Virus record (IMG/VR): IMGVR_UViG_3300030329_006034
Location: 29,793 to 93,792 of that record
Length of the DNA stretch: 64,000 nt
Source: a virus
Reading direction: 5' to 3' (one strand)
The notes under the pieces were generated by a model. It was not told the DNA's origin. It saw nothing but the letters and a program-made list of their open reading frames with translations, and did no database searches. This document shows positions 11,320 through 26,376 of this stretch, piece after piece. The position numbers were made by a program, and so were the translations under genes. Each line of letters opens with the position of its first letter. Position 1 is the stretch's first letter.

Positions 11320-13629
11320 CTAAGACTGTATAATTGTTATTTCGTTTCCGTTTTCGAGGTTAAAAGTCTCTCGTAGTGGGAGTTGTGAAATTAGTTCTAT
11401 AAAGTCCGGTTTATATCTTTTCATATTTTTTTCCCAACGAATTGCCCAACATGAAATAATTGTGTTGTTAATTTCTGCGAAAAGTGGGTATAATCTACAC
11501 GGAGCCGGTTCCCAGTCCGGAGCATCGTTTATTTCCGCACTAATGTAATATTTTTCCCAATTAAAATTTTTATTTAACTTAATATTTAATGTCCCTGGGT
11601 AAGGTAATTCTTCAGTGTATGTAGCTATATCTATTATTCGCGAATTATCATTTCTAACAAACGCTTTAGACGCGCCGCCTGCACCGCTTCTAACTGTCCC
11701 GGTATAAATTACCTTGGGCTGCTCTAATATAAAATATTCTGATTTTTCTTTTAAAACAGAATATCTTTTTAAGAGATTTTTCCACTTCGGGACATTTTTA
11801 TGATGTCTAGTAGGTTGATCATAGCACTTTAAAGCGTTCATTTTCTGTTCATAAACTTCATCTGTTAATTTAAACTCTGTACCGGAGCCATAACCAAAAA
11901 ATAACTTTGGCACGTTTGGGATATTTGCTACGACCCACTTATGAATAAATTTATGATGTTTATGACCATATTCACCTGCTTCAGAATGCGTTACAATTAA
12001 GTCGTATTTTGATATCATATCAATTAACATATCTGGCATCTCCAAGGTAGTAGATTTTTTAACTTCGACGAATGGCAGTGACATTGCATTTGTAATACCT
12101 AAGGTGTTTGCAGCTCTAATATAACAAACAGACCGGACTTTATCTTCAATATCAGCAGGAACAGAGCAAGTTAAGCTATCCCACGTTTTATCTGGGTTCG
12201 ACGCAATTAAACCACCGGCCCAACATGTTTCATCATCTGGATGAGCTCCTATAACTAGTATTCGCTCCGCAGCATTAATAATATTATTAATTTTTGGTTT
12301 TTGAATTTTGGTGTATACGGTTAACGATTCATAATCATGAGATCTTTTAAACAGCCCTGAGTCGTCTACCAGTTGATGTGCAATTTTACCTTTATTTGAT
12401 TTTTTAAACATTATCATTTTACCGTCATCTTTTAGCATTGTATATAATGTTTCAATTAATTTAATATCTGTCGTTTGCCCGTAGTCCTCAATATCTTTAC
12501 CTCTTTTACTACAATATTTTTTGCTATATTCACAAAGGTGAAAATTCGTAATAATATCAAAATTATTTAAAAAAGGTGCTGTATTTAAGGTATACATGTC
12601 CCCATAAAATGCTTTATACTTGAGACATAATTCCGGATCTGTCTGTAACATATTCATATATTCCTGATATTCTTTAATCGACGCAGTAATACCTAATATA
12701 TTGTGATTTCTAAGATTATCGCCTACCATATGGTGACCACCGGTGCCGATATGAAATATAGATAGATCGCTAGTGTTTAAGGACGCCACGTAATCAATAA
12801 AATGCTTATCACATGGGCATCTTTTATAATCAAATTTACACGATTTATTATATGTGTTAAATTTTTTAATAGGAGGCGGTATCTCTACATTTTTTTTATT
12901 TTTTACCGTATTTAATACATGAAGCACATCCTTTGTGTGCTTGTCATCAAAAGTCCAATTTTCTTTAATGAATCTTTTGTCTCTTAATTCGTGTTGTTTA
13001 GGGTTACCATGAAAGTAGACATATCGAGCTGCTGGTGGAATTCCTGCGTCGAAGTCACCTTCGTTACAGTGCTTTTTATAGCTTACTAGTTGACCCGGTG
13101 TTACGTCATCCCATAGAGCATCTGGTTTTACGTAATCATTAAGCCAGAACATTTCTGAAAACTGACCCTTTAAAAAATATTTTCTGTTATGAATGTCGTC
13201 GTTTTTGTTCTTTAACCACGTATTCCAGACGTAGTCAGCTTTATCTGAATTTAAAGAGACGAAACCATTGCAAAGCTTACATAAACGCCCGGGATTACGA
13301 GGGACAATGTAAGATTCTTGCCGGTGTTCTATGTCTTCTGGTGACTTAATAAATAACCCATCGAGATCCATTATTATAGCACGTTCTTTAACGATTTCAG
13401 GTCTATACATTTCTAACTTGCAACACCAACCTCTTTCTGAGTTTATAAAAGGATATGTTTGAATTTCCGGAAGAAAGCCACTTTCAAAATCAGTAACTAC
13501 ACTTAAGGTGGAGTCTGGAGACCATTTTTTAATGTTTGAGTAGAGAGAATTTACCCACTGCGGGTTATATCCCGCTCCGAAATCTCGAAACTTAGAGGGT
13601 CTTTTAAATAATGTGGTTACGTAATTCAT
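11320..13629 (-). CDS. Four-domain fusion: GT8-like glycosyltransferase + SAM methyltransferase-like + PIG-L/LmbE deacetylase + CTP-dependent riboflavin-kinase-like domain
   Basis: GWCCKLEM...IMDLD...YFHGNPK; IFHIGTG...FDIITNFH; LVIGAHPDDE...THSEAGEYGHKHH; GTVRSGAG...PYPGTLNIKL...IELIS...LRETFNLENG. Confidence 0.75.
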   Translation of the reverse strand: MNYVTTLFKRPSKFRDFGAGYNPQWVNSLYSNIKKWSPDSTLSVVTDFESGFLPEIQTYPFINSERGWCCKLEMYRPEIVKERAIIMDLDGLFIKSPEDIEHRQESYIVPRNPGRLCKLCNGFVSLNSDKADYVWNTWLKNKNDDIHNRKYFLKGQFSEMFWLNDYVKPDALWDDVTPGQLVSYKKHCNEGDFDAGIPPAARYVYFHGNPKQHELRDKRFIKENWTFDDKHTKDVLHVLNTVKNKKNVEIPPPIKKFNTYNKSCKFDYKRCPCDKHFIDYVASLNTSDLSIFHIGTGGHHMVGDNLRNHNILGITASIKEYQEYMNMLQTDPELCLKYKAFYGDMYTLNTAPFLNNFDIITNFHLCEYSKKYCSKRGKDIEDYGQTTDIKLIETLYTMLKDDGKMIMFKKSNKGKIAHQLVDDSGLFKRSHDYESLTVYTKIQKPKINNIINAAERILVIGAHPDDETCWAGGLIASNPDKTWDSLTCSVPADIEDKVRSVCYIRAANTLGITNAMSLPFVEVKKSTTLEMPDMLIDMISKYDLIVTHSEAGEYGHKHHKFIHKWVVANIPNVPKLFFGYGSGTEFKLTDEVYEQKMNALKCYDQPTRHHKNVPKWKNLLKRYSVLKEKSEYFILEQPKVIYTGTVRSGAGGASKAFVRNDNSRIIDIATYTEELPYPGTLNIKLNKNFNWEKYYISAEINDAPDWEPAPCRLYPLFAEINNTIISCWAIRWEKNMKRYKPDFIELISQLPLRETFNLENGNEITIIQS

Positions 13630-14195
13630 TCGTATTTTACAATTGTTATTTTATTTCTTATTGATTGTAGCCAAGTTTGTTCGAGCTCCGGTCTATGGAA
13701 CCGGCTATTTTTTTTGCCTCCAGGTCTGCAGGGCCAGGTTCTCGACTTAAGTCCATCAAATCCAAATACTGTAGATGATGCTGGGTGAAAAATAGTCATA
13801 AGCGCATGCACCGTTGTAGCCCCTGTTGTAGGTTCCTTATAAATTAGATTTTTACACTCTTTTACTGCCTTAACCGGTAAGTGATATTCTACGTGTTTTG
13901 AACGACGCGTCGACATTATAAGTGACTTATAATGTCGCCGTTGTATGCTGTTCCAAAGCCACTGCATTTTATATGTTTTTCTTAGTAATGACATCGCACA
14001 AATCATAATATCTGTGCGGTTTCCGAGACTCTCTGATAGCTCTGGTATAGGAAATTGAAAATTAAATCTAATAACAACGTCGTGTTCATCAATCCACGAT
14101 CCATCCTTTTTTTCTATAATTTTTTCACAATTTCCAACAACAGCAACACTTTTCCCATCAATTAAATGAGATGCATATGTTAAATCCTTACTCAT
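13626..14195 (-). CDS. GT29 sialyltransferase-like protein
   Basis: Sialylmotif L (VAVVGN...G.WIDEHDVVIRFN...LGNRT), S (PTTG...VFGFD), VS (HRPELE). Confidence 0.8.
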   Translation of the reverse strand: MSKDLTYASHLIDGKSVAVVGNCEKIIEKKDGSWIDEHDVVIRFNFQFPIPELSESLGNRTDIMICAMSLLRKTYKMQWLWNSIQRRHYKSLIMSTRRSKHVEYHLPVKAVKECKNLIYKEPTTGATTVHALMTIFHPASSTVFGFDGLKSRTWPCRPGGKKNSRFHRPELEQTWLQSIRNKITIVKYE

Positions 14196-14875
14196 TAATA
14201 CGGGGCTAATGAATCTATAGGCTCTTTTCTAGCTATGTTAATTTCTGATTCAACAGGAGAAAAGTTAACCAGGTCAATATTGAGTTTTTCGCAGCTTTCT
14301 AAAGCTAATTTAAATTTGTCCTTTAAGCGTGTAGCTCCAAGACGGAGAGGATCCGGGGTACTGTACGAACCGTAGAAAGAATCTGCTTCTAAATTTTTGA
14401 AGAAGTTCTCACCCCACTCTTGTATACTTGACTCTGTTTTATTGCAAAATTGATTCTGTAAATTGGGTCTCTTTGCTTGGTTCCACTTTTCAACCTTAGC
14501 TGGGTTGTAGTCGTGATCAAATCCTAAGAGACAAATCTTTTCTGGACGTAGCGACATCATTATCCAGTATAACCCCATAAAAAATATAGTGTACCCGCAA
14601 TGATGCTGCGGTGACTTAATATCCCAATTAAAATAATTTTTTGCGTCTTCAGCTGTTTTAGCGTATTCGTGAAATCCTACTTCTGTTCCAAATTTAAATT
14701 CACCTGGCTTAGGCTTTTGTTCTGATGGAAAATCTCCAGAACGTATCCAAGCATCGACTGGGTGATTTCTAAATAACCTCCATGCATTATTTACACAACA
14801 TACTGCATAATCATCAAGACTTACCGCGTCAACGAGTTTGGCTGAATTACCGCTTCCTACATATAATACTTTCAT
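14195..14875 (-). CDS. Maf/DUF115/GT42-like nonulosonate transferase-fold protein
   Basis: KVLYVGSGNS, CCVNNAW, YTIFFMGLYW, ICLLGFDHDY; resembles the GxGxS / N / LxGxD pattern of CstII and Maf. Confidence 0.55.
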   Translation of the reverse strand: MKVLYVGSGNSAKLVDAVSLDDYAVCCVNNAWRLFRNHPVDAWIRSGDFPSEQKPKPGEFKFGTEVGFHEYAKTAEDAKNYFNWDIKSPQHHCGYTIFFMGLYWIMMSLRPEKICLLGFDHDYNPAKVEKWNQAKRPNLQNQFCNKTESSIQEWGENFFKNLEADSFYGSYSTPDPLRLGATRLKDKFKLALESCEKLNIDLVNFSPVESEINIARKEPIDSLAPY

Positions 14876-15702
14876 AACTTTAACTCTCTTTTAACTTCTT
14901 TAATAAAATCTTCCGGTATTACATCTTTAAACTGCTCAATAACAAGATTAGTATCTAATCCCACTTCTTGATGACCGATCATATAGTTTCTGAATCGATC
15001 TTTAAGATCGTTTCGATATGGCACCCCGTCAGGTCTATCAAATCTATGGTTCCATCTTAAGAAAGGCAAGCACATTACTTTCTTACCATGTTTTCTGTAT
15101 TTTTCATGAATATACCCCTCTTCACCACCAAACCCTCTAAAGTTAGAATTAAAGCCTAGCCAACTATCTTTACGACATGTAAACAATCCTAATCCTTGCG
15201 CTTCTATTTCAAATGGGTCACTATTAGCATATTCACCTCTTGTATCCACGCCCCATTCACCCCACATATGTGCACCCCACTTACTTAAATTGAAGTGTGT
15301 ACTATAACTTTTTAAGTCATCGTAGAGCAAAGGACCATGTAGTAAATTTCCATCATCTTTCCCACTATCGTAATAATCTAAAAGTTTCTTTAACGCGCCG
15401 TTTTCAATTAACACGTGACAATCCATTACTAACACGTATTCTGTGTTTGCTAAATCAAATATCTTTGATCGCAATGCTGTGGATTGAAAGTTATCGTATT
15501 CAATATATGTTGTGGGCTCTTTAATCCAGTTTTTAAAATTATAAAGCGCTTTACCCTGATTAGAGTTAGGGTTGTTATTAATAATAACGAACTCTAGCCT
15601 GTCTAGTATATCCCTGTTATGTAATCTTGCTGATTGTAAGGTAAAATATGCCCCGTCGTAGTCATCGTATACACATATACCAATAGTAAGTTTGCCTGTC
15701 AT
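14872..15702 (-). CDS. GT-A glycosyltransferase with polypeptide GalNAc-transferase-like motifs (GT2/GT27-like)
   Basis: DxH (VMDCHV), GLFTCRK, FGGEE, HRFDR...PY, RNY...EV. Confidence 0.8.
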   Translation of the reverse strand: MTGKLTIGICVYDDYDGAYFTLQSARLHNRDILDRLEFVIINNNPNSNQGKALYNFKNWIKEPTTYIEYDNFQSTALRSKIFDLANTEYVLVMDCHVLIENGALKKLLDYYDSGKDDGNLLHGPLLYDDLKSYSTHFNLSKWGAHMWGEWGVDTRGEYANSDPFEIEAQGLGLFTCRKDSWLGFNSNFRGFGGEEGYIHEKYRKHGKKVMCLPFLRWNHRFDRPDGVPYRNDLKDRFRNYMIGHQEVGLDTNLVIEQFKDVIPEDFIKEVKRELKL

Positions 15703-15715
15703 ACGACATTACTTA

Positions 15716-18700
15716 CTAAAACTTTAGAACATTGCAACGAGGTCCTCCTCTAGATTCCGGTGGACATATTGTTGTCGGGGGCGGTGGTGTAGTTACCGTT
15801 GTCGTTGTCACCGTCGGTGTTGTAGTCGGGGTTGTAGTCCGCCGGCGACGACGCGTCGTTGAAGGAATCGGTGGAAAGACCGGATCTCCACCACCGACAA
15901 CAATTATTGGGGGCCTTGTAACTGGTGGGTTTGGCGGCCCAATGGGTTGTCCTCCAGGGGTGTCATCCGTTGGTGGGCATGGGCAACATTCGCACATTTC
16001 CCAACCTAAACCTTTATCTTTTGGCTCGAGATCTTTGGTACGAAGCTTTGCTGGCTTCTTTTTATTTTGCGGATTCATTGCAGGATCATTAACATGCATT
16101 AAAACGTCAATTGCTGGATTAAGCATAGGATTAGCATTAACAAAATCTGCATTAATAATTTTAAAACAAATCGGTCGGCATGCTTCTCTACAATCTTCAT
16201 CAAAATTTTTCGCAACGTCTTCCAGGCCTCCCTCCCAGTTTTCTTCTTCCTCTTCAGAAATTACACCGTCGTTGTTTGCGTCCTTCTTTCTGTTTGGATC
16301 AAATACAACTTCACCGTCTTCATTTTTAAACTGCTTTAACCGGTCGCCATCCTTTATATCGCCTATAGTAAGCTCGTTGCCTGGTTTAACAGCATTCCAA
16401 TTTTCATCGTTTTCTATTAAACGCTCTCTAGCCAATGCGTCGTTTATATCTTGGCGCGCTCTTTCTGGATCTGCTAATAGGTTATCAAACCTATTTAACG
16501 CCCAATCTGGTCGCTCGAGATCTTCAGGCGGCACGCCACCGTGAATTTCTTGCAACCTTCTCTCTTGCGATAATAAGGTTCGCAATTGATCTTCTTGTTG
16601 AGGAGCTAACCAGTCCTCGTTTTCAACAATTTGTTGTATAAGACCACCCACATTACCTTTAGCAATATTGTAATCTATTCGTGCCTGATTTAATCTCCCT
16701 TGTGCTTCATCTAGTTTTTCCTGTGCTGCTTCTGCCCCTGCAGACCCGGCTGGTTCTTCAGCAAGCGCCTCTTCTGCTTTTTTTACCGCTGCCAAGGCAT
16801 CTCTTCCTTCTTGTAGTGCGTCTTCAATAACGTCATCAACAAATCCCTCAGCACCAAACGGTGGATCAGTGCAGCAGTATTTTATTACAGTACCTTCTTC
16901 CACCTCAACCGGAAACTTGTCATTATCAGGAATGCCATCTTCATCTTTATCCTCCAGATCACGTACTATCTTTATACGCTGTATAGTCCACCTACCCGGC
17001 TCTACCTTTATAATTCTTATACCTCTAATCTTCCTATCAGGGTTATTCGGATCAGTAACCTTTACGCTTTCGAGTTGTCTTCTTATTTCTGCTCTTCGAG
17101 CTACTGCAGCGTCAGAATCACCACGTGGAACACTAATATTTTCAGGATCCGACCATTCCCCTTTGAAAGCCGGTTCAAATTTAACAAAGCCGAGATCAAC
17201 AAAGACGTTATTGTTTCTTGCTTTCCAATACCAGCATAGATTACAGTTTGTTGGCGGGCAACACGGGCAACATTCACACTCTCTCCATCCGAGTCCTCTA
17301 TCAACTTCTCCATCGCCGTCTGTATCGTCATCTGGTAATTCGCCATTTTCTCTAATATCTTCTGACGGTCTAGTATCCTTATTTTGATTTACCCACTCTG
17401 CATCATGAATTTTAAAACACCTTCTCTTGTCCTCATCAAGGTATTCCGCTTTCCATTGTTCGAGACGTGCCCATAGGTCATTTGCTTGTTCTGGTGTTAT
17501 ATAACCTTGATTAACAGTGAACTGAACCATCGATCGCGCTTTAAACAGATCATTTTCTAACAACGCACCAGCGACGTCAAACTCACTACGATCCGGATCT
17601 TCATCCATTCCTTCATGACGAAGTTGGTTTGGAAAAACCCCAGGTGCGAGTCCTTCCGCGTAAGTTTTTGCTTCAAATTCGGGCCCTTCCCAAAACACTA
17701 GTCCGTTTTCTGCTGTCCCGTCAAACGGTCTTAAGTAGTTGTCCCGAGCATTATCCCAAAACCACATTGCTAGTCTTTCTGCTGGAGGCGCGCATTCCGG
17801 AACACAGCACGGTGTTGTGGTACTTGTAGAAGTTGATGTTGATGTACTCGTACTAGTAGATGTAGATGTACTAGTTGAAGTAGAAGTTGAAGTAGAAGTT
17901 GATGTTGTAGTAGTTACATCATCCTTATCTGGGCAACATTCGCAATATTCCCATCCCCCAGCTGCATGACCGGCTTCGACAGGATTTTCTAGACCATTAT
18001 ATCCAATTGGTATTTCATTATCCCAGTGTCCTTTACCAAAGCGATCTTCTACTGATTGCTCGTTATCAAATTGATAAGCTGCAGCAACTAGCTCTGCTGG
18101 TGATCTATCTAAATTTTGTCGTACAAGATCTTCATTAACAATCTTGTAACACTGCCCGTCACTATCATCTAAACACTTTTCCCATTCTATGCCAGCGCTA
18201 TTATTATCCTTTACTACAAGTACAGCTGTTGGAGTAGCAGCCCACTCCCCGTTAAAGTCATCCTCTGTTGCCTGCTTTTTATCCGCCCCCGTAGCAGCGA
18301 GCTCAATATATATATTTTTATAATTGCCTTGTTTTACCTCTTCTTTGGTAGCTGTTTCTTTTTCAAAGTACCATTCACCTTTCGGCGGGCAACACTTAGG
18401 ACACGGTGTAGTAGTTGACGTGGTCGTAGGTGGACTCGTAGTAGATGTACTAGTTGATGTTGTGGTTGTAATGTCTGGTTTTCCCGGTGGTTTTTTCTTG
18501 CAGCAACGACATTCTTTCCACACTGCAGAACTTAAACTCGGATCAATACACGCTGGGTCTTCCTGTTTAGGGTTATAAGATTCAGCAGAACCATCACTAT
18601 TAGATTGACTACTTTCTCGGGAATTATACAGAGCTTCCCAATTAATTAGCCGATAGCACTTTCCATTATGTTTTATAACTATTCCCTTCTTAGCAGCTTT

Positions 18701-21700
18701 TTCAAGCTCTTCCTTATTAATAGTACCATCTTCATTCATGACACCGGGAAAAGCATCCAGAAAATTTCCTTCTGTTGGTGGGTCGCCTTCACCGTCCCAT
18801 CCTTCATTTTCGTCCCGGATCTGCCGAACTTCTCCATCAACTTCTGGTCCTGTTCCCACCGGTGCACCTACGTTAACCGGTTCAGTTCTCTCAACTTCAC
18901 CTGGCTCGTTAGGATCCGGATCAGCCGGCGCCTCAGGATCCGGATCATCTGGCTCAATAGGCTTGCTCTTCTGCCTTTCGTCATTAATACCGGGTACTGG
19001 ATCTTGTCCCGGCACAACGACATCATCTCCCTCGCCCGGCTGGCTCGCCGGTTCGAACCACCTCTCAATCGCCCCGAGTGCGATTCCTATTCGCGCACCA
19101 TCTTCTGGAACGTCACGGAATAAACCGCCACTCTCCCAACCATCATTAGGTCTATGAAAAACAAGATAAGGGTCACGATCATCGGCGAATAAACGAGCGT
19201 CTAATGATGCATTCTTGGCATTTGAAAGTTCTACAGTGATACCCAAGTTATTATCAAAGACAACATCTATAATATTGCCTTTATTGTCCCGAGTAATAGT
19301 CATAGGAATTCCACGTTCATCGGGCCCGGGAAGGAGAGCCCCTCCAAGAGCGTCAAAACTTCGATGTCTCCATTGGCTCACCCCGAGACCGGGTAACCCT
19401 TCTCGGTTAATCCTCTCAACCTCGGCACCACTTCTTCCAACCAAATGTTGTTGTTCTGGATGTCTAAATAAAACTCTTTCTTGTCGCGATTGTCCTTGGT
19501 TACGCACATTGCGTTTAGCTTTAGGATTTTGTAACGCACCTGGTCCTCTAACACTAACGGTTACAGGACTTCTTTGTTGTGTGCCAGTTGGTTGCTGTCG
19601 TGAAGTTGCAACTAGTGTATAAGTGTTATCGGCATTTAGTTGAGCGTGTAATTCCTGCGTAACAACTACATTTTGCCCACCTCCACCTTCAAACAGGCCT
19701 TGAAAGTTAGATGCGTTTTGTTGCTGTACCTTATTATAGGCGGTGTAGTTATTAGGTGGTGACGTTCCATAAGTATTAGGCGGAAAAGTCGTACCTGCCT
19801 CCTCCGGTGGCATCGTCGTACTATCCTCATCCGGTGGCATCGTCGTACTATCTGTGCTATAATTTGGTGCAGTATTTGTATTGAGATCTTCTAAAGGATC
19901 TCCTGTTGGTGGGTTATGTGTCCACCCTAACTGCTCGAGCTCTAAATGCTGCTTAAAAGTAGTAGTATATATTCCGTACCCCTCAGCATCATACATGTAA
20001 TGCGGTGTAAAGGTCACTTGTGTGTAGACAGGATCATTTGCTGAACTTTGTGACTTTGATGGAGCAGGAGTTGATGGTGCCGGAGCCCGAGGAAACGGCG
20101 TTGCCTCTACATTTGGATTTGGTGTAGTTGTCCGCGTTGTGGGTCGCGGTGGCATTGTTGGCATAGGCCCGGGCTCAAATGGATCCGGTGTTGTAGGTGC
20201 AATCGGTCTTCTTGTTGTAGTTGTAGTAGTAATAGGCTCCGGAGCTGAAGTAGTAGTAGTAACATCATCGGGCTCGGTCACCGTAGGTGAAACACTTGGC
20301 TTACCTGTTGAGATATCAACTGTGCGCAGTTTATGCACCTTACTATCTGTCTGTACGCTAAGGCTCTCCATAGCCTCATTGATCTTACTCTGTGTTTCAG
20401 AATTACCGTAAAATGGACCCTCTAAATTTGTGGTATGTGTTTCAATTAAAATGGGCGTGTCTTCAGTATATATAAATGCTGGTCCACTACTATCACCCTT
20501 TCCTAACCCTTCCCTTAGATTACCGTCGTACTCATCAGCGTATTCATCTGGAAGAGAGGTATATAAGACCACTTTTTCTCCTGCTTTTCCCAGCCTATTC
20601 GCGGCTTGAAAGCTTACTACTTTTGGAAGTGTTTTTCTCTCTTGATCGATTACAACAACATATGCGCCTGTTAACTCTTTATTGTATCCACCTACCGGCC
20701 GTGGTTCTGGTACAGGGTAGATTTCAGTATTTTCGACCGGTGCATTAAGAATACCGACGCTAATATCTGCACCTTGTAGCGGCTCGACCGCTACGATAGT
20801 ACGTGTAACTCGCTCGCCGCTATTGTTAATAAAGTTAACAGTGTTACCAGGCATACGTAAATCCCAGTGCTTCGACATTACAAAGTGAGTAGGTGAAACT
20901 AAAGTTACAGCTTTTTTGTACCCGGGCGTTGGATATGAGGGAGCTTTTTCACTAACTCCAGAGAGATTTACCTTGCTATTAAGATCTGGTAAGATTGATA
21001 GGAGTAATGTGTTTATTTCTTTTGATACTGTATCGTCGGCTGTTGGTTTTTGAAGCCGGGGATCCACCGTGGTTTTATCGGTATCAAAACTATCAACATC
21101 TGAAGTGGTATTGTACGTAGTCGATCCGGATCCGGATCCAGTATAAATACTAGTATCGACAGTAGAATTGCGTACTATTAACTCCTCAAAGGTTATAGAC
21201 CAGTCTTCTGATGTATCTACTATAAAGCTATCTATACTATCCGGGTAATAATATGTCGTCCCAGCTGCAGTATCAACCCTAACTCTATTTGGATTCTTCG
21301 AGTCGTAGCTTTCGTAATCTACATCATATGATTCACCTTCATAACCTTTAAAAAAAGCCGACCCTAGCATCGCGAAGTATTTTTTTAAATTCGGGCCTTT
21401 ATTTAGTGTTGTGTCTTTGCCAGACTTAGGATTATTCCAGTACCAGGGACCTGTAGGCCAACAGCATGTTGTTGTACTAGTTGAAGTTGAAGTTGACGTT
21501 GATGTACTTGTACTTGTACTAGTTGATGTAGATGTACTAGTTGAAGTTGAGGTTGTAGTAGTTACATCATCACATTCACAGCAAATCTCTATACAGCATC
21601 CGCAGCTTTCTATTAGTAAATATAAGTCTGATCCTGGATCGCTAGGATTTATTCGGGCTGGAATCGCATCATTAATTCCTTGCCTGTCCTTTAGGATGAC

Positions 21701-21892
21701 TGAAAGGAAAGGTGTAGTTGCGTTTTTTTTGTATATCTTATATAACGGCCCGCCTCCGGATACTGATGTTATTTTGATCGTTCCCTCTTTACAATTACAC
21801 TCGTATTTTACCGTTACTGTGTCATTAGAACATTGTCCGGGATTGCTGTTACAATCACTACTCGAGTTACTAGCTGAACTATCATTAGCCAT
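15716..21892 (-). CDS. Giant mucin-like Cys/Thr-rich modular virion protein with a trypsin-like serine protease domain
   Basis: (TS)n and poly-T tracts; four CC-P-W[YF][WF]...C[YF][KR][IL]...W-x-x-CxCC units; TLVSPTHFVMSKH / ADI / GDSSGP triad; DxDxDG loops. Confidence 0.8.
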   Translation of the reverse strand: MANDSSASNSSSDCNSNPGQCSNDTVTVKYECNCKEGTIKITSVSGGGPLYKIYKKNATTPFLSVILKDRQGINDAIPARINPSDPGSDLYLLIESCGCCIEICCECDDVTTTTSTSTSTSTSTSTSTSTSTSTSTSTSTTTCCWPTGPWYWNNPKSGKDTTLNKGPNLKKYFAMLGSAFFKGYEGESYDVDYESYDSKNPNRVRVDTAAGTTYYYPDSIDSFIVDTSEDWSITFEELIVRNSTVDTSIYTGSGSGSTTYNTTSDVDSFDTDKTTVDPRLQKPTADDTVSKEINTLLLSILPDLNSKVNLSGVSEKAPSYPTPGYKKAVTLVSPTHFVMSKHWDLRMPGNTVNFINNSGERVTRTIVAVEPLQGADISVGILNAPVENTEIYPVPEPRPVGGYNKELTGAYVVVIDQERKTLPKVVSFQAANRLGKAGEKVVLYTSLPDEYADEYDGNLREGLGKGDSSGPAFIYTEDTPILIETHTTNLEGPFYGNSETQSKINEAMESLSVQTDSKVHKLRTVDISTGKPSVSPTVTEPDDVTTTTSAPEPITTTTTTRRPIAPTTPDPFEPGPMPTMPPRPTTRTTTPNPNVEATPFPRAPAPSTPAPSKSQSSANDPVYTQVTFTPHYMYDAEGYGIYTTTFKQHLELEQLGWTHNPPTGDPLEDLNTNTAPNYSTDSTTMPPDEDSTTMPPEEAGTTFPPNTYGTSPPNNYTAYNKVQQQNASNFQGLFEGGGGQNVVVTQELHAQLNADNTYTLVATSRQQPTGTQQRSPVTVSVRGPGALQNPKAKRNVRNQGQSRQERVLFRHPEQQHLVGRSGAEVERINREGLPGLGVSQWRHRSFDALGGALLPGPDERGIPMTITRDNKGNIIDVVFDNNLGITVELSNAKNASLDARLFADDRDPYLVFHRPNDGWESGGLFRDVPEDGARIGIALGAIERWFEPASQPGEGDDVVVPGQDPVPGINDERQKSKPIEPDDPDPEAPADPDPNEPGEVERTEPVNVGAPVGTGPEVDGEVRQIRDENEGWDGEGDPPTEGNFLDAFPGVMNEDGTINKEELEKAAKKGIVIKHNGKCYRLINWEALYNSRESSQSNSDGSAESYNPKQEDPACIDPSLSSAVWKECRCCKKKPPGKPDITTTTSTSTSTTSPPTTTSTTTPCPKCCPPKGEWYFEKETATKEEVKQGNYKNIYIELAATGADKKQATEDDFNGEWAATPTAVLVVKDNNSAGIEWEKCLDDSDGQCYKIVNEDLVRQNLDRSPAELVAAAYQFDNEQSVEDRFGKGHWDNEIPIGYNGLENPVEAGHAAGGWEYCECCPDKDDVTTTTSTSTSTSTSTSTSTSTSTSTSTSTSTSTTTPCCVPECAPPAERLAMWFWDNARDNYLRPFDGTAENGLVFWEGPEFEAKTYAEGLAPGVFPNQLRHEGMDEDPDRSEFDVAGALLENDLFKARSMVQFTVNQGYITPEQANDLWARLEQWKAEYLDEDKRRCFKIHDAEWVNQNKDTRPSEDIRENGELPDDDTDGDGEVDRGLGWRECECCPCCPPTNCNLCWYWKARNNNVFVDLGFVKFEPAFKGEWSDPENISVPRGDSDAAVARRAEIRRQLESVKVTDPNNPDRKIRGIRIIKVEPGRWTIQRIKIVRDLEDKDEDGIPDNDKFPVEVEEGTVIKYCCTDPPFGAEGFVDDVIEDALQEGRDALAAVKKAEEALAEEPAGSAGAEAAQEKLDEAQGRLNQARIDYNIAKGNVGGLIQQIVENEDWLAPQQEDQLRTLLSQERRLQEIHGGVPPEDLERPDWALNRFDNLLADPERARQDINDALARERLIENDENWNAVKPGNELTIGDIKDGDRLKQFKNEDGEVVFDPNRKKDANNDGVISEEEEENWEGGLEDVAKNFDEDCREACRPICFKIINADFVNANPMLNPAIDVLMHVNDPAMNPQNKKKPAKLRTKDLEPKDKGLGWEMCECCPCPPTDDTPGGQPIGPPNPPVTRPPIIVVGGGDPVFPPIPSTTRRRRRTTTPTTTPTVTTTTVTTPPPPTTICPPESRGGPRCNVLKF
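17812..17915 (-). repeat. Thr/Ser mucin-like tract
   Basis: DDVTTTTSTSTST...TTTP with mixed synonymous codons. Confidence 0.9.
18405..18470 (-). repeat. Thr/Ser/Pro mucin-like tract
   Basis: DITTTTSTSTSTTSPPTTTSTTTP. Confidence 0.85.
19801..19853 (-). repeat. 27-bp tandem duplication (DSTTMPPDE/DSTTMPPEE)
   Basis: tccggtggcatcgtcgtactatc occurs twice with a 27-bp period. Confidence 0.9.
21467..21562 (-). repeat. Thr/Ser mucin-like tract
   Basis: DDVTTTTSTST...TTTCC. Confidence 0.9.
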
Positions 21893-21894
21893 AA

Positions 21895-22788
21895 TTATAC
21901 AGATCTAGCTGTTATATCACTAACAGTAGAAATAACAGTATTTTCATTAACTGGTATTTCTGCACTAGTAATTGTTTCGGTTAATACAGAATAACCTACA
22001 TATCCCTCTGTATGAAAGTTCTTTAAAAAGAATTCTTTGGCACTTAGGTTAACAGCAGTAGCAGATACAGGCGTTGTAAATGAAAACCCGCAATATATAT
22101 CATCTAGATTACTATAGTTTTCTAATCTAAACCCTAAATCAACGGTCGTTAATGGAGAGTAGGTTGTAGTGTCTGAGTCGTGGTAGTCTATAAATAATTT
22201 TTGTCCTAAGTTTACATATCTAAATCTTAGCGTTCTAAATGTATCCGTTGAAAGAGTACTAAACGATGTAGATATAGCAGAAAGGTGCTCGTTAAGAATA
22301 ACGTTATGGTTATAATCTCTCAAGATAAGAGATTCCTTTTTCTTATAATCATACCCGACGCCCGGTCGACTATCACGGCCATCTACGGCGTATAGTCCCG
22401 TTGTATCAAATGCTATTTTTAATAAAACACCGCTTAATGCGTTTTCTTCAACTTCTATAAATTCACCGGCTTCTGTAAGTAAAGAAGCACCTGCTTCTGT
22501 AGTGAGCTTGCCTCCAGATAAAATCCACGCAGGGTCTGAGTCTCCTATATATTGACCCGGTAATGCTGAAATTGGAGAAGATAGAGTAGTTAGAAATGTA
22601 GCAAATGCTAGTTGGTAGTCTTCAGGATCTTCGATGTTAAGTACTTCGCTATTTGTAATAGTAGTTTGTGGTAATTTATACTGAAAAGACCATACTATAT
22701 CATAATTAGAATTATATTTTCTTTTTGTTTCTATAAAAGAATAATATCTTGCGTCAGTTGGCAAAGTAATGTCACTAGGGAAAGCCAT
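21895..22788 (-). CDS. Virion protein, possible ConA/legume-lectin-like fold
   Basis: Beta-rich; LKIAFDT, YCGFSF; own TAAATA box. Confidence 0.5.
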   Translation of the reverse strand: MAFPSDITLPTDARYYSFIETKRKYNSNYDIVWSFQYKLPQTTITNSEVLNIEDPEDYQLAFATFLTTLSSPISALPGQYIGDSDPAWILSGGKLTTEAGASLLTEAGEFIEVEENALSGVLLKIAFDTTGLYAVDGRDSRPGVGYDYKKKESLILRDYNHNVILNEHLSAISTSFSTLSTDTFRTLRFRYVNLGQKLFIDYHDSDTTTYSPLTTVDLGFRLENYSNLDDIYCGFSFTTPVSATAVNLSAKEFFLKNFHTEGYVGYSVLTETITSAEIPVNENTVISTVSDITARSV

Positions 22789-22806
22789 GTACTTATATTT
22801 AATTAC

Positions 22807-23019
22807 TCAACCTTTTATAAAAGTACAGGTCAAAGAATTAGTTGCGCGTAATCTAGTTTTAAAAACTAAAGCATATCCAAGTTTACCCAATTCTCTAAAT
22901 ACTGTACCAAAGTAATCTTCATGAACGTTAACTAGTATACTATCAAATATTTCATCATATAAGACAAAATCAGAGAACTCTTCACAGAGCGCGCTGCCTC
23001 TCTGATAACTTGCCTTCAT
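22807..23019 (-). CDS. Hypothetical protein
   Basis: TAAATA-N5-ATG. Confidence 0.6.
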   Translation of the reverse strand: MKASYQRGSALCEEFSDFVLYDEIFDSILVNVHEDYFGTVFRELGKLGYALVFKTRLRATNSLTCTFIKG

Positions 23020-23027
23020 ACTAGTAT

Positions 23028-23195
23028 TTATTCATTAAATACCTGTATTATTTCTTCAATCTTATCTAAAAGAATATTTGTTTTTTCGATTTCAGCAGTT
23101 TCATCTATAGAAAAAGATGTATGAGATTTTAGAATATTCTTAAGAACTACAAAATCTTGATAATCTAATCCTTCTACTATTACTTCATCAGCCAT
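23028..23195 (-). CDS. Small hypothetical protein (possible fibre chaperone)
   Basis: Start re-called at MADEV, TAAATT-N5-ATG. Confidence 0.55.
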   Translation of the reverse strand: MADEVIVEGLDYQDFVVLKNILKSHTSFSIDETAEIEKTNILLDKIEEIIQVFNE

Positions 23196-23228
23196 ATACA
23201 AATTTATGTATATCCGGGTGTTTATCAA

Positions 23229-24848
23229 CTAGGACCATTCAAACTTAACCATCCCAGGTCCAACGCAATATACTGGCGGGCCGCATCCGTTTTGCCCTCC
23301 TCCTCCAGCACCTGGCGCCGGCGCTGATCCCCAGTAAGAGGAAGCACCAGCACTATGGAGACATTCCCCAACACTAAGAATTCCACCATAACCACCTGTT
23401 AATACGTGGCCTGTAGCTACATATTCGTTACCGGTATTAATAGTGCCTTCTCCATGAAGTGGTATACTTCCGGTCGACGTGCGTCCACCATTAGAAATAG
23501 CAAGGTTACCGCCGCCTTTACTTATTAGACTTTGGTTACCGTTAGTATTAATTCCTGTGGGATTAGTTCCCACTGTCACACTAAAAGTAGTTCCTGCTGG
23601 AGCTGATATATAACCAGTCACAGTAGATGCAGCACCACCTGGTTTATTACCACCTGTAGCACCGGATCCTGTAACATAAAATTTAACAAACTCGATACCA
23701 GCCGGCATTTGGAAACCATTGGCAAACGTACCAGGTGTTGTAAGTACACAAGTACCTGGTGTAGGTCGTTCAATCTTTACACTACCGCTTAGAGGGTTAA
23801 ATGCTACTCCGGTTATATCGTCAGCATTTATACGCGCAGATAAGTTTTTACTAATAGTAAATGTTGGACTAGTTACACCACCAACCGCTTTAATTATAAA
23901 CATTGTACCGGTAGCGGATAATGTTGAAGCAGTTGTGGTACTGTTGACCTGGAACAATGTACTGTTAAACGGGTCATCAGACCCATATAGTGCTTTACTG
24001 GTAAAGTCAGGCACTTTAAAGCTAGAAGGCGTCCCGCCGTATTGTGTTGTTATAATTGCTGAGAGATCTGGGTAATCTGCGTTTAATACTTCCCTACCAT
24101 CGCAAGGCAACCAACCATTCGGGAAATGAGGATTACCAGCAGTAGATACATATGGTACTATGGTACCTGCAGGAATCAAAGCTGCGGTAGTTGGTGCTAC
24201 CCCTGTTGTTATAATATTAGGATTACCCCACCCTAGTGCGCCAGAAGCATCGGCTCGTAAATATTGATCCTTTTCAGGCGCGCCTAAAGGGAATGTATAA
24301 TCGATTGCATTAATTTTTAGCTTAGATGGTAAAGTAAAATAATCATCAGCATTAGTAGACGCTTGATTAATCCGATCGGTTACTATAGTACTGCTAAGAG
24401 TTACACGCCCTGAACTATCTAGAGTTTGACCTTCACCGAGAGCATCTGCAGAGAAATTATTTGCTGATAAAGTACCTACTGTAATTTCTTCAGCTGCATT
24501 TATTGTTATAGTTTGATTTCCAGCTGTATTATTAGTAGCTACTTTATACCAATTTTCAGCTAAGCTTCCAACACCGGATACACAAACAAAAAATGAATTG
24601 TTGTCGGTGTCGTATGCATAATCGCCAATATCAACAGGTGCCAGTGTCGTTAAATTTGCAGCTCTACCCTTATACTTGTTGCCTACTAAATTACCGCCTA
24701 CTGTTGTACCATCACCTATCCACAGTCTTTTTGTATCTGTCGTATACCCCAACTCTCCGCTATCTAAAGTAATTTGCTGCCGATCATAATCAGTCCCTCT
24801 CCTTACTAGGAGCTTTAATAACGTGTTTTCTAAAATTTCAATACCCAT
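23229..24848 (-). CDS. Tail fibre with Mtd-N/hyaluronidase-N-like start, tail-collar domain and Gly-rich C-terminus
   Basis: VRRG...GELGYTTDTKRLWIGDG; IPAGTIVPY...GWLPCDG...YPDL...FKVPD. Confidence 0.85.
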   Translation of the reverse strand: MGIEILENTLLKLLVRRGTDYDRQQITLDSGELGYTTDTKRLWIGDGTTVGGNLVGNKYKGRAANLTTLAPVDIGDYAYDTDNNSFFVCVSGVGSLAENWYKVATNNTAGNQTITINAAEEITVGTLSANNFSADALGEGQTLDSSGRVTLSSTIVTDRINQASTNADDYFTLPSKLKINAIDYTFPLGAPEKDQYLRADASGALGWGNPNIITTGVAPTTAALIPAGTIVPYVSTAGNPHFPNGWLPCDGREVLNADYPDLSAIITTQYGGTPSSFKVPDFTSKALYGSDDPFNSTLFQVNSTTTASTLSATGTMFIIKAVGGVTSPTFTISKNLSARINADDITGVAFNPLSGSVKIERPTPGTCVLTTPGTFANGFQMPAGIEFVKFYVTGSGATGGNKPGGAASTVTGYISAPAGTTFSVTVGTNPTGINTNGNQSLISKGGGNLAISNGGRTSTGSIPLHGEGTINTGNEYVATGHVLTGGYGGILSVGECLHSAGASSYWGSAPAPGAGGGGQNGCGPPVYCVGPGMVKFEWS

Positions 24849-24864
24849 TGTCTTATATATTTAT

Positions 24865-26376
24865 TTACCAGTTAAATACAGGAATTGCAAATCTATCAAA
24901 AGGTTCTGTACATCCAGGTCTTCTACCACTGCCAGATAATGCGAATCTTATAAATCCTGCTGAGCTTAGTCTCGTGGTAACCCCTTGACAATCTAAAGCC
25001 TCATATACTTTTTGATTATACATACCTTGATATCCTCTAGACACCTGGTTCGGAGCTCCGTTAAATAATTCATTGTTACCATCTGCCGCAGAGTATCTAA
25101 TAATAAAGTTAAATCCTTGCGCGCTTAGGGTTCCTGCGTCATTAAAACCACCGCCTGGGTCAGTGGCACCACTTATATAGTAAGTTGTTGAATCTGGTGC
25201 ACCAGCATCAGAACCATATAGTAAAACATCACCACCGGTTAGAGCAGGTACTCTAAAGAAATTACCTGGAGGGGATGGTAACCCGTTTGTGTTGTCATAT
25301 CTATTTCCGATAACGTTATACAAATCTCTGTAATTCGAATCAACAGTAGATGAATATATATTACCATCACAAAGTAAGTATCCATCAGGTATTACACTAA
25401 AGGCACGTGCGTGAGGTAATATAGTTCCTATTGGAACATCATCACCTGAAGCGCCACCTGATAACCCAGTAGCTGTTACAACATCATAAATAGAACTTGC
25501 CATTCCATTTATAATTCCATTAGATATATTAAAAAGAGCAAATTCACTAGCAGAAGTATCAGATGAGTTAGTAGAAAAGCCATTAGCTATACCAATAACA
25601 CCGTCACTACCTCTAGTTAAAGAGCTATCAACACCTGTAAATGTACCTTCTAACTTTTGTGTGCTAGCATTTAACGCTAATCCATTTCCGATAGAGTTTG
25701 GATCGAAGCTAGAGTACTTAGTAGTGTGTGTTCCGAGATTAGCTAAATAGAGGCGGTCATTAACGTCAAATTCGAATTGCGCTGGGTCAACATTAACCCT
25801 AATGGTGGCCCCATTACCACCCGAAATACCAGCACCTAAAGCAGTGGTAGATATTTCTCTTGCACCAATGGAATTTTGCTTAATACTAATCTTCCCGGCA
25901 GATATTTCATTAAAAACAGTACTATAGGCTACCGCCATCCTGTCGCCTACTTTTACGAGACCATCACCAAAAATATCGTTAGTAAATTCACTAGTATTTA
26001 CTGAGCTTTTAGCTACTATTATACTATTATTTGCTCCATAATCTAAGGTTAATCCAGGAACAGGTCCAATATATGCATGCCCGGAGAGAGGGTCGTCACC
26101 ACCATAATCTACACTGGTTAGCATGTACAGCTTACTGTTAGCATATGCGATATCACCAACTTCGGCTCCTTCTATAGTTCCTAAACTAGATTCGAGATTA
26201 AATGGTCCGTAGTTTATATTAGAGACCGCTCGACCACCTACCGAAGCACCATCACCGACATATAACCTTCTAGTATCTAAAGTGTATCCCAATTCACCCT
26301 GATCGAGTATAATAGACCTTCGTTGCTGGTTAGTACCGCGCCTTACTTTTAATTTTACTATACTTACGTCTGCCAT
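24865..26376 (-). CDS. Tail fibre with Mtd-N-like start and tail-collar domain
   Basis: KVRRG...GELGYTLDTRRLYVGDG; VPIGTILP...GYLLCDG...FRVP. Confidence 0.85.
   Translation of the reverse strand: MADVSIVKLKVRRGTNQQRRSIILDQGELGYTLDTRRLYVGDGASVGGRAVSNINYGPFNLESSLGTIEGAEVGDIAYANSKLYMLTSVDYGGDDPLSGHAYIGPVPGLTLDYGANNSIIVAKSSVNTSEFTNDIFGDGLVKVGDRMAVAYSTVFNEISAGKISIKQNSIGAREISTTALGAGISGGNGATIRVNVDPAQFEFDVNDRLYLANLGTHTTKYSSFDPNSIGNGLALNASTQKLEGTFTGVDSSLTRGSDGVIGIANGFSTNSSDTSASEFALFNISNGIINGMASSIYDVVTATGLSGGASGDDVPIGTILPHARAFSVIPDGYLLCDGNIYSSTVDSNYRDLYNVIGNRYDNTNGLPSPPGNFFRVPALTGGDVLLYGSDAGAPDSTTYYISGATDPGGGFNDAGTLSAQGFNFIIRYSAADGNNELFNGAPNQVSRGYQGMYNQKVYEALDCQGVTTRLSSAGFIRFALSGSGRRPGCTEPFDRFAIPVFNW

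Follow-up and report, generated by a model that had tools for sequence, protein, structure and literature searches.

To our knowledge, glycosylation of a phage particle by the phage's own enzymes has so far been shown just for some actinobacteriophages, on the ends of capsid and tail-tube proteins. Freeman et al. are said to have described, in Cell Host Microbe in 2023, virion O-glycosylation in Che8, Corndog and Myrna, on capsid and tail-tube C-termini. Elsewhere, in the glycosylation of bacterial flagellin, Maf enzymes transfer CMP-activated nonulosonic acids onto Ser/Thr of a surface filament protein, and glycoside hydrolases secreted by bacteria and fungi, such as the cellulases of Cellulomonas fimi, have O-glycosylated Pro/Thr/Ser linkers, which are stiffened and protected from proteases by the modification. 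Here we analyse a locus in which a giant protein with Thr/Ser-rich tracts is encoded directly upstream of four predicted glycan-modifying enzymes, the first of which resembles the polypeptide GalNAc-transferases (ppGalNAc-Ts) of glycosyltransferase (GT) family GT27. The window, that is, the whole stretch of DNA analysed, comprises 64,000 nucleotides (nt), positions 29,793 to 93,792 of the IMG/VR virus record IMGVR_UViG_3300030329_006034, a 93.8-kb viral contig that is ~44% complete (CheckV). The five open reading frames (ORFs) are all on the minus strand:

15716..21892, minus strand: P0001, 2058 amino acids (aa), Cys-rich with five Thr/Ser(/Pro) tracts; candidate O-glycosylation acceptor (from ORF, tracts and homologs)
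14872..15702, minus strand: P0002, 276 aa, soluble GT-A glycosyltransferase; candidate initiating protein O-glycosyltransferase (from Pfam GT2, GT27-like fold and motifs)
14195..14875, minus strand: P0003, 226 aa, GT42 (CstI/CstII)/Maf-like fold; candidate second transferase with a CMP-ulosonic acid as possible donor (from an AlphaFold (AF2) model)
13626..14195, minus strand: P0004, 189 aa, GT29-like, soluble and truncated; carries sialylmotif L, a motif resembling S and H-x4-E (invariant) (from Pfam PF00777)
11320..13629, minus strand: P0005, 769 aa, predicted four-domain tailoring enzyme (from Pfam, PHROG and fold)

The stop codon of P0001 is separated by 13 nt from the start of P0002, and P0002 to P0005 are joined by ATGA, TAATG and ATGA overlaps in turn. 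The gap and the four coupled genes are thus as described in an earlier account of this DNA made from its letters alone (here called the sequence-only reading), which had proposed a mucin-like virion protein followed by the operon for its glycosylation.

The P0002-type GT2 family is large. It comprises ~2000 clusters at 90% identity in marine metagenomes, an exhaustive profile search returned 1852 representatives at E<=1e-3, and at E<=1e-30 it is matched by ~1200 protein clusters (50% identity); the gene is present in over 324 IMG/VR contigs. Pairing with tract proteins was assessed in 85 viral loci, which fall into 50 clusters when grouped at 90% GT2 identity; 47 clusters were evaluable. An adjacent 5' ORF on the same strand with a run of at least eight Ser/Thr residues, separated from the GT2 gene by a gap of ~11-13 nt, is present in 33/47 clusters, against a background of 13/1300 other ORFs in the same loci that contain such a run (Fisher p 2e-44). 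The co-occurrence with Thr/Ser-tract genes that the sequence-only reading proposed to look for is therefore found for the GT2 gene. Among the proteins of the 93.8-kb contig, P0001 alone has a run of this length.

The upstream partners also have a common ending. In 67/83 upstream partners (38/47 clusters) the protein finishes with a stretch rich in Thr and then C-x(2-10)-C-x(1,2)-L-x-[FYW] at its carboxyl terminus, and P0001 ends with this signature too, as CPPESRGGPRCNVLKF. The Cys-loop ending has ten background occurrences, every one in a tandem paralog just 5' of a partner. Such tandem paralogs, two or three in number and each with a Thr run and the Cys-loop ending, are seen at L078:3829-6210, L091:3-1182, L093:5064-5966 and L103:449-1066 (L numbers denote loci from the comparison). 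Partner proteins range from 78 to 2431 aa, and the small ones (100-215 aa) have ~50% Ser/Thr and four Cys. Since the ending is shared across partner sizes and the small forms are rich in Ser/Thr, P0001 is an expanded member of one partner family. In this family the stalk and loop at the C-terminus are conserved and the N-terminal part is hypervariable; right-handed beta-helix (tailspike fold) domains are found in three large partner homologs. Homologs of P0001 itself are encoded directly 5' of the GT2 gene in L002, L003, L004 and L008.

The association was also examined from the partner side. A DNA pattern for ...CNKLGF-stop recovered 11 genuine partner ORFs; the Thr/Ser-rich ones are followed by a GT2 gene in 9/9 cases, and long tracts are missing from the two without GT2 (L186 and L203, one lineage with synteny to the window). 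At L186:11171-14476 (minus strand) and L203:1-1470 (plus strand) the last gene of the fibre operon is the partner, which ends in ...CDDEEDCNKLGF, and GT2 is absent. This contrast fits the hypothesis that the tracts are the acceptor, for a single lineage. A second lineage was found through P0003: 13/21 other viral loci with P0003-like genes have a P0002-like GT2 (31-45% identity) within one or two genes, and in eight second-lineage loci tract proteins are encoded next to them as well; the runs of these proteins reach 77 residues, the genes are ordered differently and the Cys-loop ending is absent.

Most of the closest members of the GT2 family are of another kind: of the 150 best representatives, 144 are long, have several domains and lack tracts. 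Among 68 long cellular homologs scanned, one of which comes from a marine bacterial metagenome-assembled genome (MAG), a PqqD/RRE peptide-binding domain is present in 15 and GT25 in 16, and further fused domains include GT10, methyltransferase, sulfotransferase and TPR. In P0258, P0263 and 13 others the P0002-like GT domain (E ~1e-100) is fused to PqqD/RRE; the family also joins it to GT25, GT10 fucosyltransferase, methyltransferase and sulfotransferase domains. The PqqD-fused proteins may represent an unrecognised class of peptide-glycosylating enzymes similar to those that make ribosomally synthesised and post-translationally modified peptides (RiPPs). Gene pairing and PqqD fusions indirectly support a peptide acceptor for P0002. 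When the pairing, the reverse test, the second lineage and the PqqD fusions are taken together, the neighbouring tract protein is the acceptor that reads best. We consider it highly probable that the P0002-type GT2 and its upstream partner are functionally coupled, and, with less assurance though still on the favourable side, that the coupling consists of O-glycosylation of the tracts by the full mechanism proposed below.

The strict TTTT(ST)nTTT tracts of P0001 number three (aa 111-142, 1142-1163 and 1327-1361). These tracts and the other modules of the protein lie as follows:

21467..21562, minus strand: tract 1, TTTT(ST)13TTT, aa 111-142, with Cys clusters on both sides
20279..21046, minus strand: cargo domain, aa 283-538, with a putative GDSSGP serine-protease-like motif (from homology to L002)
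18404..18469, minus strand: tract 2, Thr/Ser/Pro, aa 1142-1163, between C-x-CC and C-x2-CC
17810..17914, minus strand: tract 3, TTTT(ST)14TTTP, aa 1327-1361, with Cys clusters on both sides
15719..15994, minus strand: C-terminal module, aa ~1967-2058, with C-x-CC, a Pro-rich part, a Thr-rich run and the terminal CPPESRGGPRCNVLKF (from the partner-family motif)

A fourth tract, Thr/Pro-rich, lies at about aa 548-600 and a fifth, of Thr/Pro, near the C-terminus (~aa 2006-2050), so that the 2058-aa protein and five tracts of the sequence-only reading are indeed present, as three strict and two Thr/Pro tracts. The protein contains 47 Cys and five C-x-CC motifs. At the DNA level the tracts are imperfect repeats (65-78% matches) and no pure microsatellite; with so low a match between repeats, microsatellite slippage as their sole origin was ruled out. 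The cargo domain is 77% identical in the giant partner of L002, and the other parts of the protein 30-40%; it thus resembles a conserved cargo that is more strongly constrained. Searches of Pfam and of PDB sequences gave no match for this protease-like domain.

P0002 is recognised by Pfam only as a generic GT2 (PF00535, E 2.7e-7). Its AF2 model, based on an alignment of 37 homologs, has a predicted local distance difference test score (pLDDT) of 87.7. In a Foldseek search with this model each of the top 47 PDB matches is a GT27 catalytic domain (E 1e-13 to 1e-10, TMq 0.70-0.76). An independent VIA search against 48,161 representative chains placed mGalNAc-T1 at Z 22.2, with 256/276 residues aligned, and TgGalNAc-T3 at Z 21.6, whereas other GT-A folds (K4CP, WrtF, RmlT, B4GALNT1, TarS) reached Z 18 to 19.1 with fewer residues aligned. 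The motifs named by the sequence-only reading are all there and in the order given: DCH (94-96), GLF (172-174), GGE (192-194) and HRF...PY (219-229). D94, H96, G192-G193-E194-E195 and H219 are invariant among the 37 homologs and also among the 68 long homologs; F191-GGEEG and H219-R-F...P228-Y229 are invariant in the family, at a spacing apparently similar to that of GT27. In BFVD the sole match is an unannotated GT from an uncultured phage (29% identity). A glycocin-type RiPP system was ruled out by the Z of only 14.4 for SunS and by different Cys spacing.

Based on these features a mechanism can be proposed. Late in infection, soluble P0002 would move a sugar from a host UDP-sugar onto Ser/Thr hydroxyls of P0001, using a Mn-binding DxH...H site and a GGEE motif that are predicted to be arranged as in the polypeptide GalNAc-transferases. 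The most conserved likely acceptor would be the Thr run before the C-terminal Cys loop, with the (TS)n tracts second. The partner family would be marked by a stalk rich in Thr, with C-x(n)-C-x-L-x-[FYW] at its end, and by a freely exchangeable N-terminal part: here a protease-like multi-module giant, elsewhere a beta-helix tailspike-like protein, or Ser/Thr tracts alone. The glycan would then probably be lengthened and modified by the three other enzymes, with ulosonic or nonulosonic acid taken from host CMP-sugars by P0003 and P0004. P0005 would attach one more sugar and carry out methylation, de-N-acetylation and possibly phosphorylation. The expected result is a stalk or fibre that is stiff, clad in glycan and resistant to proteases, most likely borne on the virion. 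We put forward as a tentative view, with somewhat less than even confidence in the whole, that aquatic myoviruses have a widespread "phage mucin" system composed of a Thr/Ser-stalk family with exchangeable cargo, a lectin-less cytoplasmic relative of the ppGalNAc-transferases and a swappable tailoring hot-spot, with (non)ulosonic acid capping here. The capping step, taken on its own, is possible but somewhat doubtful.

The enzymes proposed to act after P0002 are assigned by different kinds of evidence. The AF2 model of P0003 (pLDDT 92) matches Cst-I at Z 12.0 (173 aa) and Maf at Z 11.3 (164 aa), with SteA, HPPK and TPK at 8-10, and CstII is the top Foldseek match (E 1e-3); P0003 has no match to any Pfam family at E<=1, so that the Maf/GT42 likeness claimed for it holds for the fold and not at the level of Pfam sequence families. 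The sole PHROG match is to phrog_4603 (32 N-terminal residues, E 1e-3). Homologs of P0003 are also found in cellular genomes, as stand-alone chromosomal genes in Enterobacterales (Erwinia, Enterobacillus, Scandinavium, Siccibacter; L010, L012-L019, 41-48% identity) and as stand-alone genes in marine Flavobacteriia (L020-L040, 31-37%). In Erwinia rhapontici the homolog has genes for a KdgM porin and a beta-helix protein as neighbours and is not part of a lipopolysaccharide (LPS) cluster; in general the neighbours of the Erwinia/Enterobacillus homologs (transporters, KdgM porin, YicC) are uninformative.

P0004 matches Pfam PF00777 at E 1e-9 and 38.6 bits (cut-off 23). Its family is small (7 clusters), and the family profile matches ST3Gal1, ST6Gal1, ST8Sia3 and ST6GalNAc2 (E 4e-9 to 7e-5). 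Against ST3Gal1 the L motif scores 32 bits with the family profile and the S region is weak, at 5.5 bits. Residues P122, G125, G145-F146-D147, H167 and E172 (H-x4-E) are invariant in the family, and Val and Phe occupy the positions aligned to two disulfide Cys of ST3Gal1. The proposal of a GT29 enzyme with L, S and VS sialylmotifs is thus borne out for PF00777 and the L motif, but the S motif is weak, the protein is truncated and the disulfide Cys are replaced. GT29-like genes in 43 other viral contigs (L138-L180) encode short soluble proteins (~166-250 aa) or fusions of ~330-611 aa; L160, L176 and L177 are giant-virus MAG contigs, and L147 and L163 have such genes in tandem pairs. In phages, proteins of this type seem to be commoner than the mainly eukaryotic image of the family suggests.

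The fusion of GT8-like, methyltransferase, deacetylase and kinase parts described for P0005 was recognised in all four domains:

12937-13587, minus strand: phage GT-A family domain, aa 15-231 (phrog_1962, E 3e-24)
12295-12864, minus strand: class I S-adenosylmethionine methyltransferase fold, aa 256-445
11926-12258, minus strand: PIG-L/LmbE deacetylase domain, aa 458-568 (PF02585, 37.0 bits, cut-off 28.2)
11332-11631, minus strand: CTP-dependent riboflavin-kinase (RFK)-like domain, aa 667-766 (PF01982, 40.9 bits, cut-off 25)

The nearest named neighbours of the N-terminal GT are GT8 and Nucleotid_trans, and the riboflavin-kinase-like domain matches M. jannaschii RibK (2p3m, E 5e-5). The only relative of P0005 was found in L181, a 128.8-kb contig in which the methyltransferase, PIG-L and RFK-like parts are separate genes, and this trio therefore travels as a unit. 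The cluster at L181:5589-11168 encodes a GT6-MptE(Maf-like) fusion, a sulfotransferase, a methyltransferase-like protein, PIG-L, and an RFK-like protein plus methyltransferase. Between this cluster and a GT29-like gene lies an ORF of 285 aa (L181:15896-16753, plus strand) with matches to Pfam Acb1 (anti-CBASS) and the 2'-5' RNA ligase superfamily.

The slot 3' of the GT2 gene is a hot-spot of variation: it is empty, or is filled by a 245-296-aa protein, by a GT2 and a sulfotransferase, or by GT2-GT32-methyltransferase fusions. For example, a polysialyltransferase-like protein, a GT2 and a sulfotransferase are encoded in the slot at L001:1040-3222, and GT2-GT32(Caps_synth)-methyltransferase fusions of 923 and 767 aa at L002:10830-13601 and L003:4104-7197, respectively.

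The source phage is an uncultured marine myovirus; with a baseplate wedge protein ~30% identical to theirs, it is distant from T4-like cyanophages. The replication module (DnaB, single-stranded DNA-binding protein, exonuclease, primase), on the plus strand, is convergent with a minus-strand baseplate and tail-fibre module, and P0001 to P0005 are the terminal genes of the tail-fibre operon:

21895..26376, minus strand: tail-fibre operon genes 5' of P0001, encoding a 297-aa protein and tail-fibre, collar-fibre and short-tail-fibre-like proteins

PHROG tail-fibre matches were obtained for the products of 23229-24848 and 24865-26376. The ATG of P0001 lies 2 nt past the stop codon of the preceding gene, which encodes the 297-aa protein. 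None of the five proteins P0001-P0005 contains a transmembrane-like segment, and scans for promoters and terminators gave results at chance level only. No counterpart was found among 50,697 deposited phage records from cultured phages, either by megablast of the region or by tblastn of P0002 and of the non-repetitive C-terminal half of P0001. A location of P0001 on the virion is slightly favoured by where its gene lies in the operon and by the beta-helix domains that three partner homologs carry.

Several observations weigh against a conserved pathway of mucin-type glycosylation on a virion protein. With P0002 itself, the Z lead of GT27 over other GT-A folds is just ~3. The family profile, run against all PDB sequences, matched TarP/TarS N-terminal halves only, with no GT27 at E<=1; the motif region alone gave no PDB match at E<=10, and the single sequence no GT27 match in PDB. 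Moreover, P0002 has neither a lectin domain nor a membrane anchor (single domain, no second Pfam domain, maximum hydropathy 1.20). Because the profiles miss GT27 and both lectin domain and anchor are lacking, we call P0002 GT27-like and do not count it as a shown member; the GT27-type initiator of the sequence-only reading is upheld by fold and DxH, but not by sequence profiles, lectin domain or anchor. Its suggested fold comparisons thus led P0002 to GT27, by this margin and with no match at sequence level, and P0003 to GT42/Maf; P0004 is assigned to GT29 by profile, not by fold.

The pairing, too, has exceptions. GT2 occurs without a partner in L005, L006, L068 and L071, where it lies 3' of a 287-aa fibre-like protein, and, in other orientation, in L055-L062. 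At L009:1277-7368 a GT2 that is 56% identical is sited between family B DNA polymerase and UvsX/RecA plus DnaB, which shows that the gene can be kept away from any tract protein. Since some lineages have GT2 without a partner, the enzyme may have other acceptors. In L063 and L066 partners accompany GT2 yet have no long tracts. A mucin-like acceptor with its initiating transferase is therefore backed by the pairing in 33/47 clusters and qualified by these lineages.

The later genes fare less well. Near the GT29-like genes of the 43 other viral contigs there is no such GT2, P0003-like gene or tract protein within 9 kb; the GT29-like gene of L181 (17350-17880) is 7 kb from the glycan cluster, and no tract protein is present. 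A tie of P0004 and P0005 to a tract protein is seen in this operon alone. An initiate-extend-cap-tailor sequence is plausible in this operon, as its genes are translationally coupled. As a conserved pathway it has to be given up, because the downstream genes vary and GT29-like (0/43 near a tract protein) and P0005-like genes occur without one. No gene for NeuB or a CMP-sugar synthetase (CTP_transf_3) was found in the contig, a negative that is not conclusive because the contig represents ~44% of the genome. The term "sialylated", used in the sequence-only reading, was too specific and is not established: with no such gene in the contig, the donor could be host CMP-Kdo or any other CMP-activated ulosonic or nonulosonic acid. 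Finally, the partner proteins do not match any proteomically verified virion protein, so that the virion appendage of the sequence-only reading has the operon position and beta-helix partners on its side and this negative against it.

Other explanations have to be set against O-glycosylation of a virion stalk. The tract protein might be a non-virion glycoprotein, soluble or released and mucin-like, made by a RiPP-like logic and with a role in the infected cell or during lysis, for example as a decoy or an adhesive, in shielding against proteases or in blocking superinfection. The PqqD/RRE domains of the cellular GT relatives are typical of peptide natural-product pathways, the small partners with their four Cys and high Ser/Thr content are more peptide- than fibre-like, and no partner matches a known virion protein family. 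We nevertheless regard this as unlikely, given the translational coupling of the genes to those for tail fibres, in the terminal part of a late structural operon, and given that tailspike-type beta-helix domains are found in three large partners and a signal peptide in none. The enzymes could also have quite different targets, namely host LPS, capsule, cell wall, other fibre proteins or DNA, with the tracts serving as unglycosylated flexible linkers of a kind common at variable fibre-operon ends. This would account for GT2 without a partner in L005, L006, L009 and L055-L062, for GT29-like and P0005-like genes in phages with no tract protein nearby, and for the stand-alone P0003 homologs of Enterobacterales and marine Flavobacteriia; moreover, GT2, GT25 and GT8-type enzymes are often LPS builders. 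It is difficult to reconcile with an adjacency of ~70% against 1% background, with the recurrence of the trio in a second lineage in another gene order, and with the tract-free state of the partner that has no GT2. All of the enzymes are soluble, their closest structural relatives take protein acceptors and the PqqD fusions indicate peptide substrates, while the DNA glucosyltransferases of T4-type phages fold differently. Such other targets therefore seem quite improbable.

A third explanation accepts that GT2 modifies the tract protein, but on its own; P0003 to P0005 would then be an unrelated, portable glycan cassette inserted in the fibre/replication slot and used, for example, on the host surface. 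The slot 3' of GT2 differs in each close relative or is empty, P0004 has a co-occurrence of 0/43, and the P0005 domain set occurs in L181 with a GT6-Maf fusion and a sulfotransferase, again with no tract protein. Against this, the four genes overlap by ATGA/TAATG/ATGA, P0003-like genes co-occur with GT2 and tract proteins in the second lineage, and the variable enzymes of the relatives are also glycan-tailoring ones, as would be expected for diversification on a fixed primer. We judge the separate cassette to be rather unlikely, and prefer the view that P0002 initiates glycans on P0001 which the downstream enzymes might tailor.

If O-glycosylation of the partner family by its neighbouring transferase is true, it would constitute a new layer of interaction of phages with host and environment (adhesion, resistance to proteases and grazing, receptor masking) and explain the hypervariable region at the ends of fibre operons. 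The logic of mucin-type O-glycosylation would then exist beyond eukaryotes, in viruses of bacteria, and an enzyme family with PqqD-fused cellular relatives would inform the origin of GT27. Glyco-engineering would also gain compact protein O-glycosyltransferases that are soluble and have a defined peptide acceptor.

How the locus relates to described systems depends on the component considered. For P0002, GT27 ppGalNAc-Ts (mouse GalNAc-T1, 8v9q; human GalNAc-T2, 2ffu; Toxoplasma GalNAc-T3, 8uhv) are the best structural match over all 276 residues. A DxH motif in place of DxD is common to both, P0002 has candidate counterparts of the GT27 GGE(E) block and of the downstream His followed by x-F...PY, in the same order, and Ser/Thr-rich acceptors are shown for GT27 and suggested by gene pairing for P0002. 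In contrast, identity is ~14-16%, and P0002 has no ricin-type lectin domain, type II anchor or secretory pathway and would work in the bacterial cytoplasm. PMC3417536 treats GT27 for apicomplexans only. P0003 has its fold in common with Maf (5mu5, Z 11.3) and the GT42 sialyltransferase Cst-I of Campylobacter (2p56, Z 12.0) but differs from them in having no Pfam MptE-like (PF01973) or GT42 sequence match. When P0004 is compared with GT29 (ST3Gal1, ST6Gal1, ST8Sia3), the L motif aligns strongly and the S motif weakly, with H-x4-E where motif VS would be expected; it is soluble, is 189 aa long as against ~270 or more in a GT29 catalytic domain, and both Cys of the L-S disulfide are replaced. The linkers of glycoside hydrolases, like the tracts of P0001, place Thr/Ser/Pro between cargo domains and an anchoring module; they are glycosylated by host machinery at secretion, whereas here the gene of a dedicated phage enzyme adjoins that of the presumed acceptor.

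The nearest parallel is the virion glycosylation of mycobacteriophages, which is cited as a precedent in PMC12619734. As at this locus, phage GTs are encoded beside structural genes, and here too a target among the phage's own proteins is predicted. The presumed acceptor here is a dedicated hypervariable partner family with a C-terminal signature, and not the C-termini of capsid and tail-tube proteins. Further differences from the mycobacteriophage case are a GT27-like initiator, hosts that are aquatic bacteria of Gram-negative type, and a system known from sequence alone. A literature search returned no description of the GT2/tract-protein pair. The comparative data suggest that uncultured myoviruses from marine and freshwater habitats share a design distinct from that of the actinobacteriophages and much more widespread; self-glycosylation of phages as such is already known, and what would be new is the combination of a dedicated mucin-like partner family, a GT27-like initiator and a variable tailoring slot.

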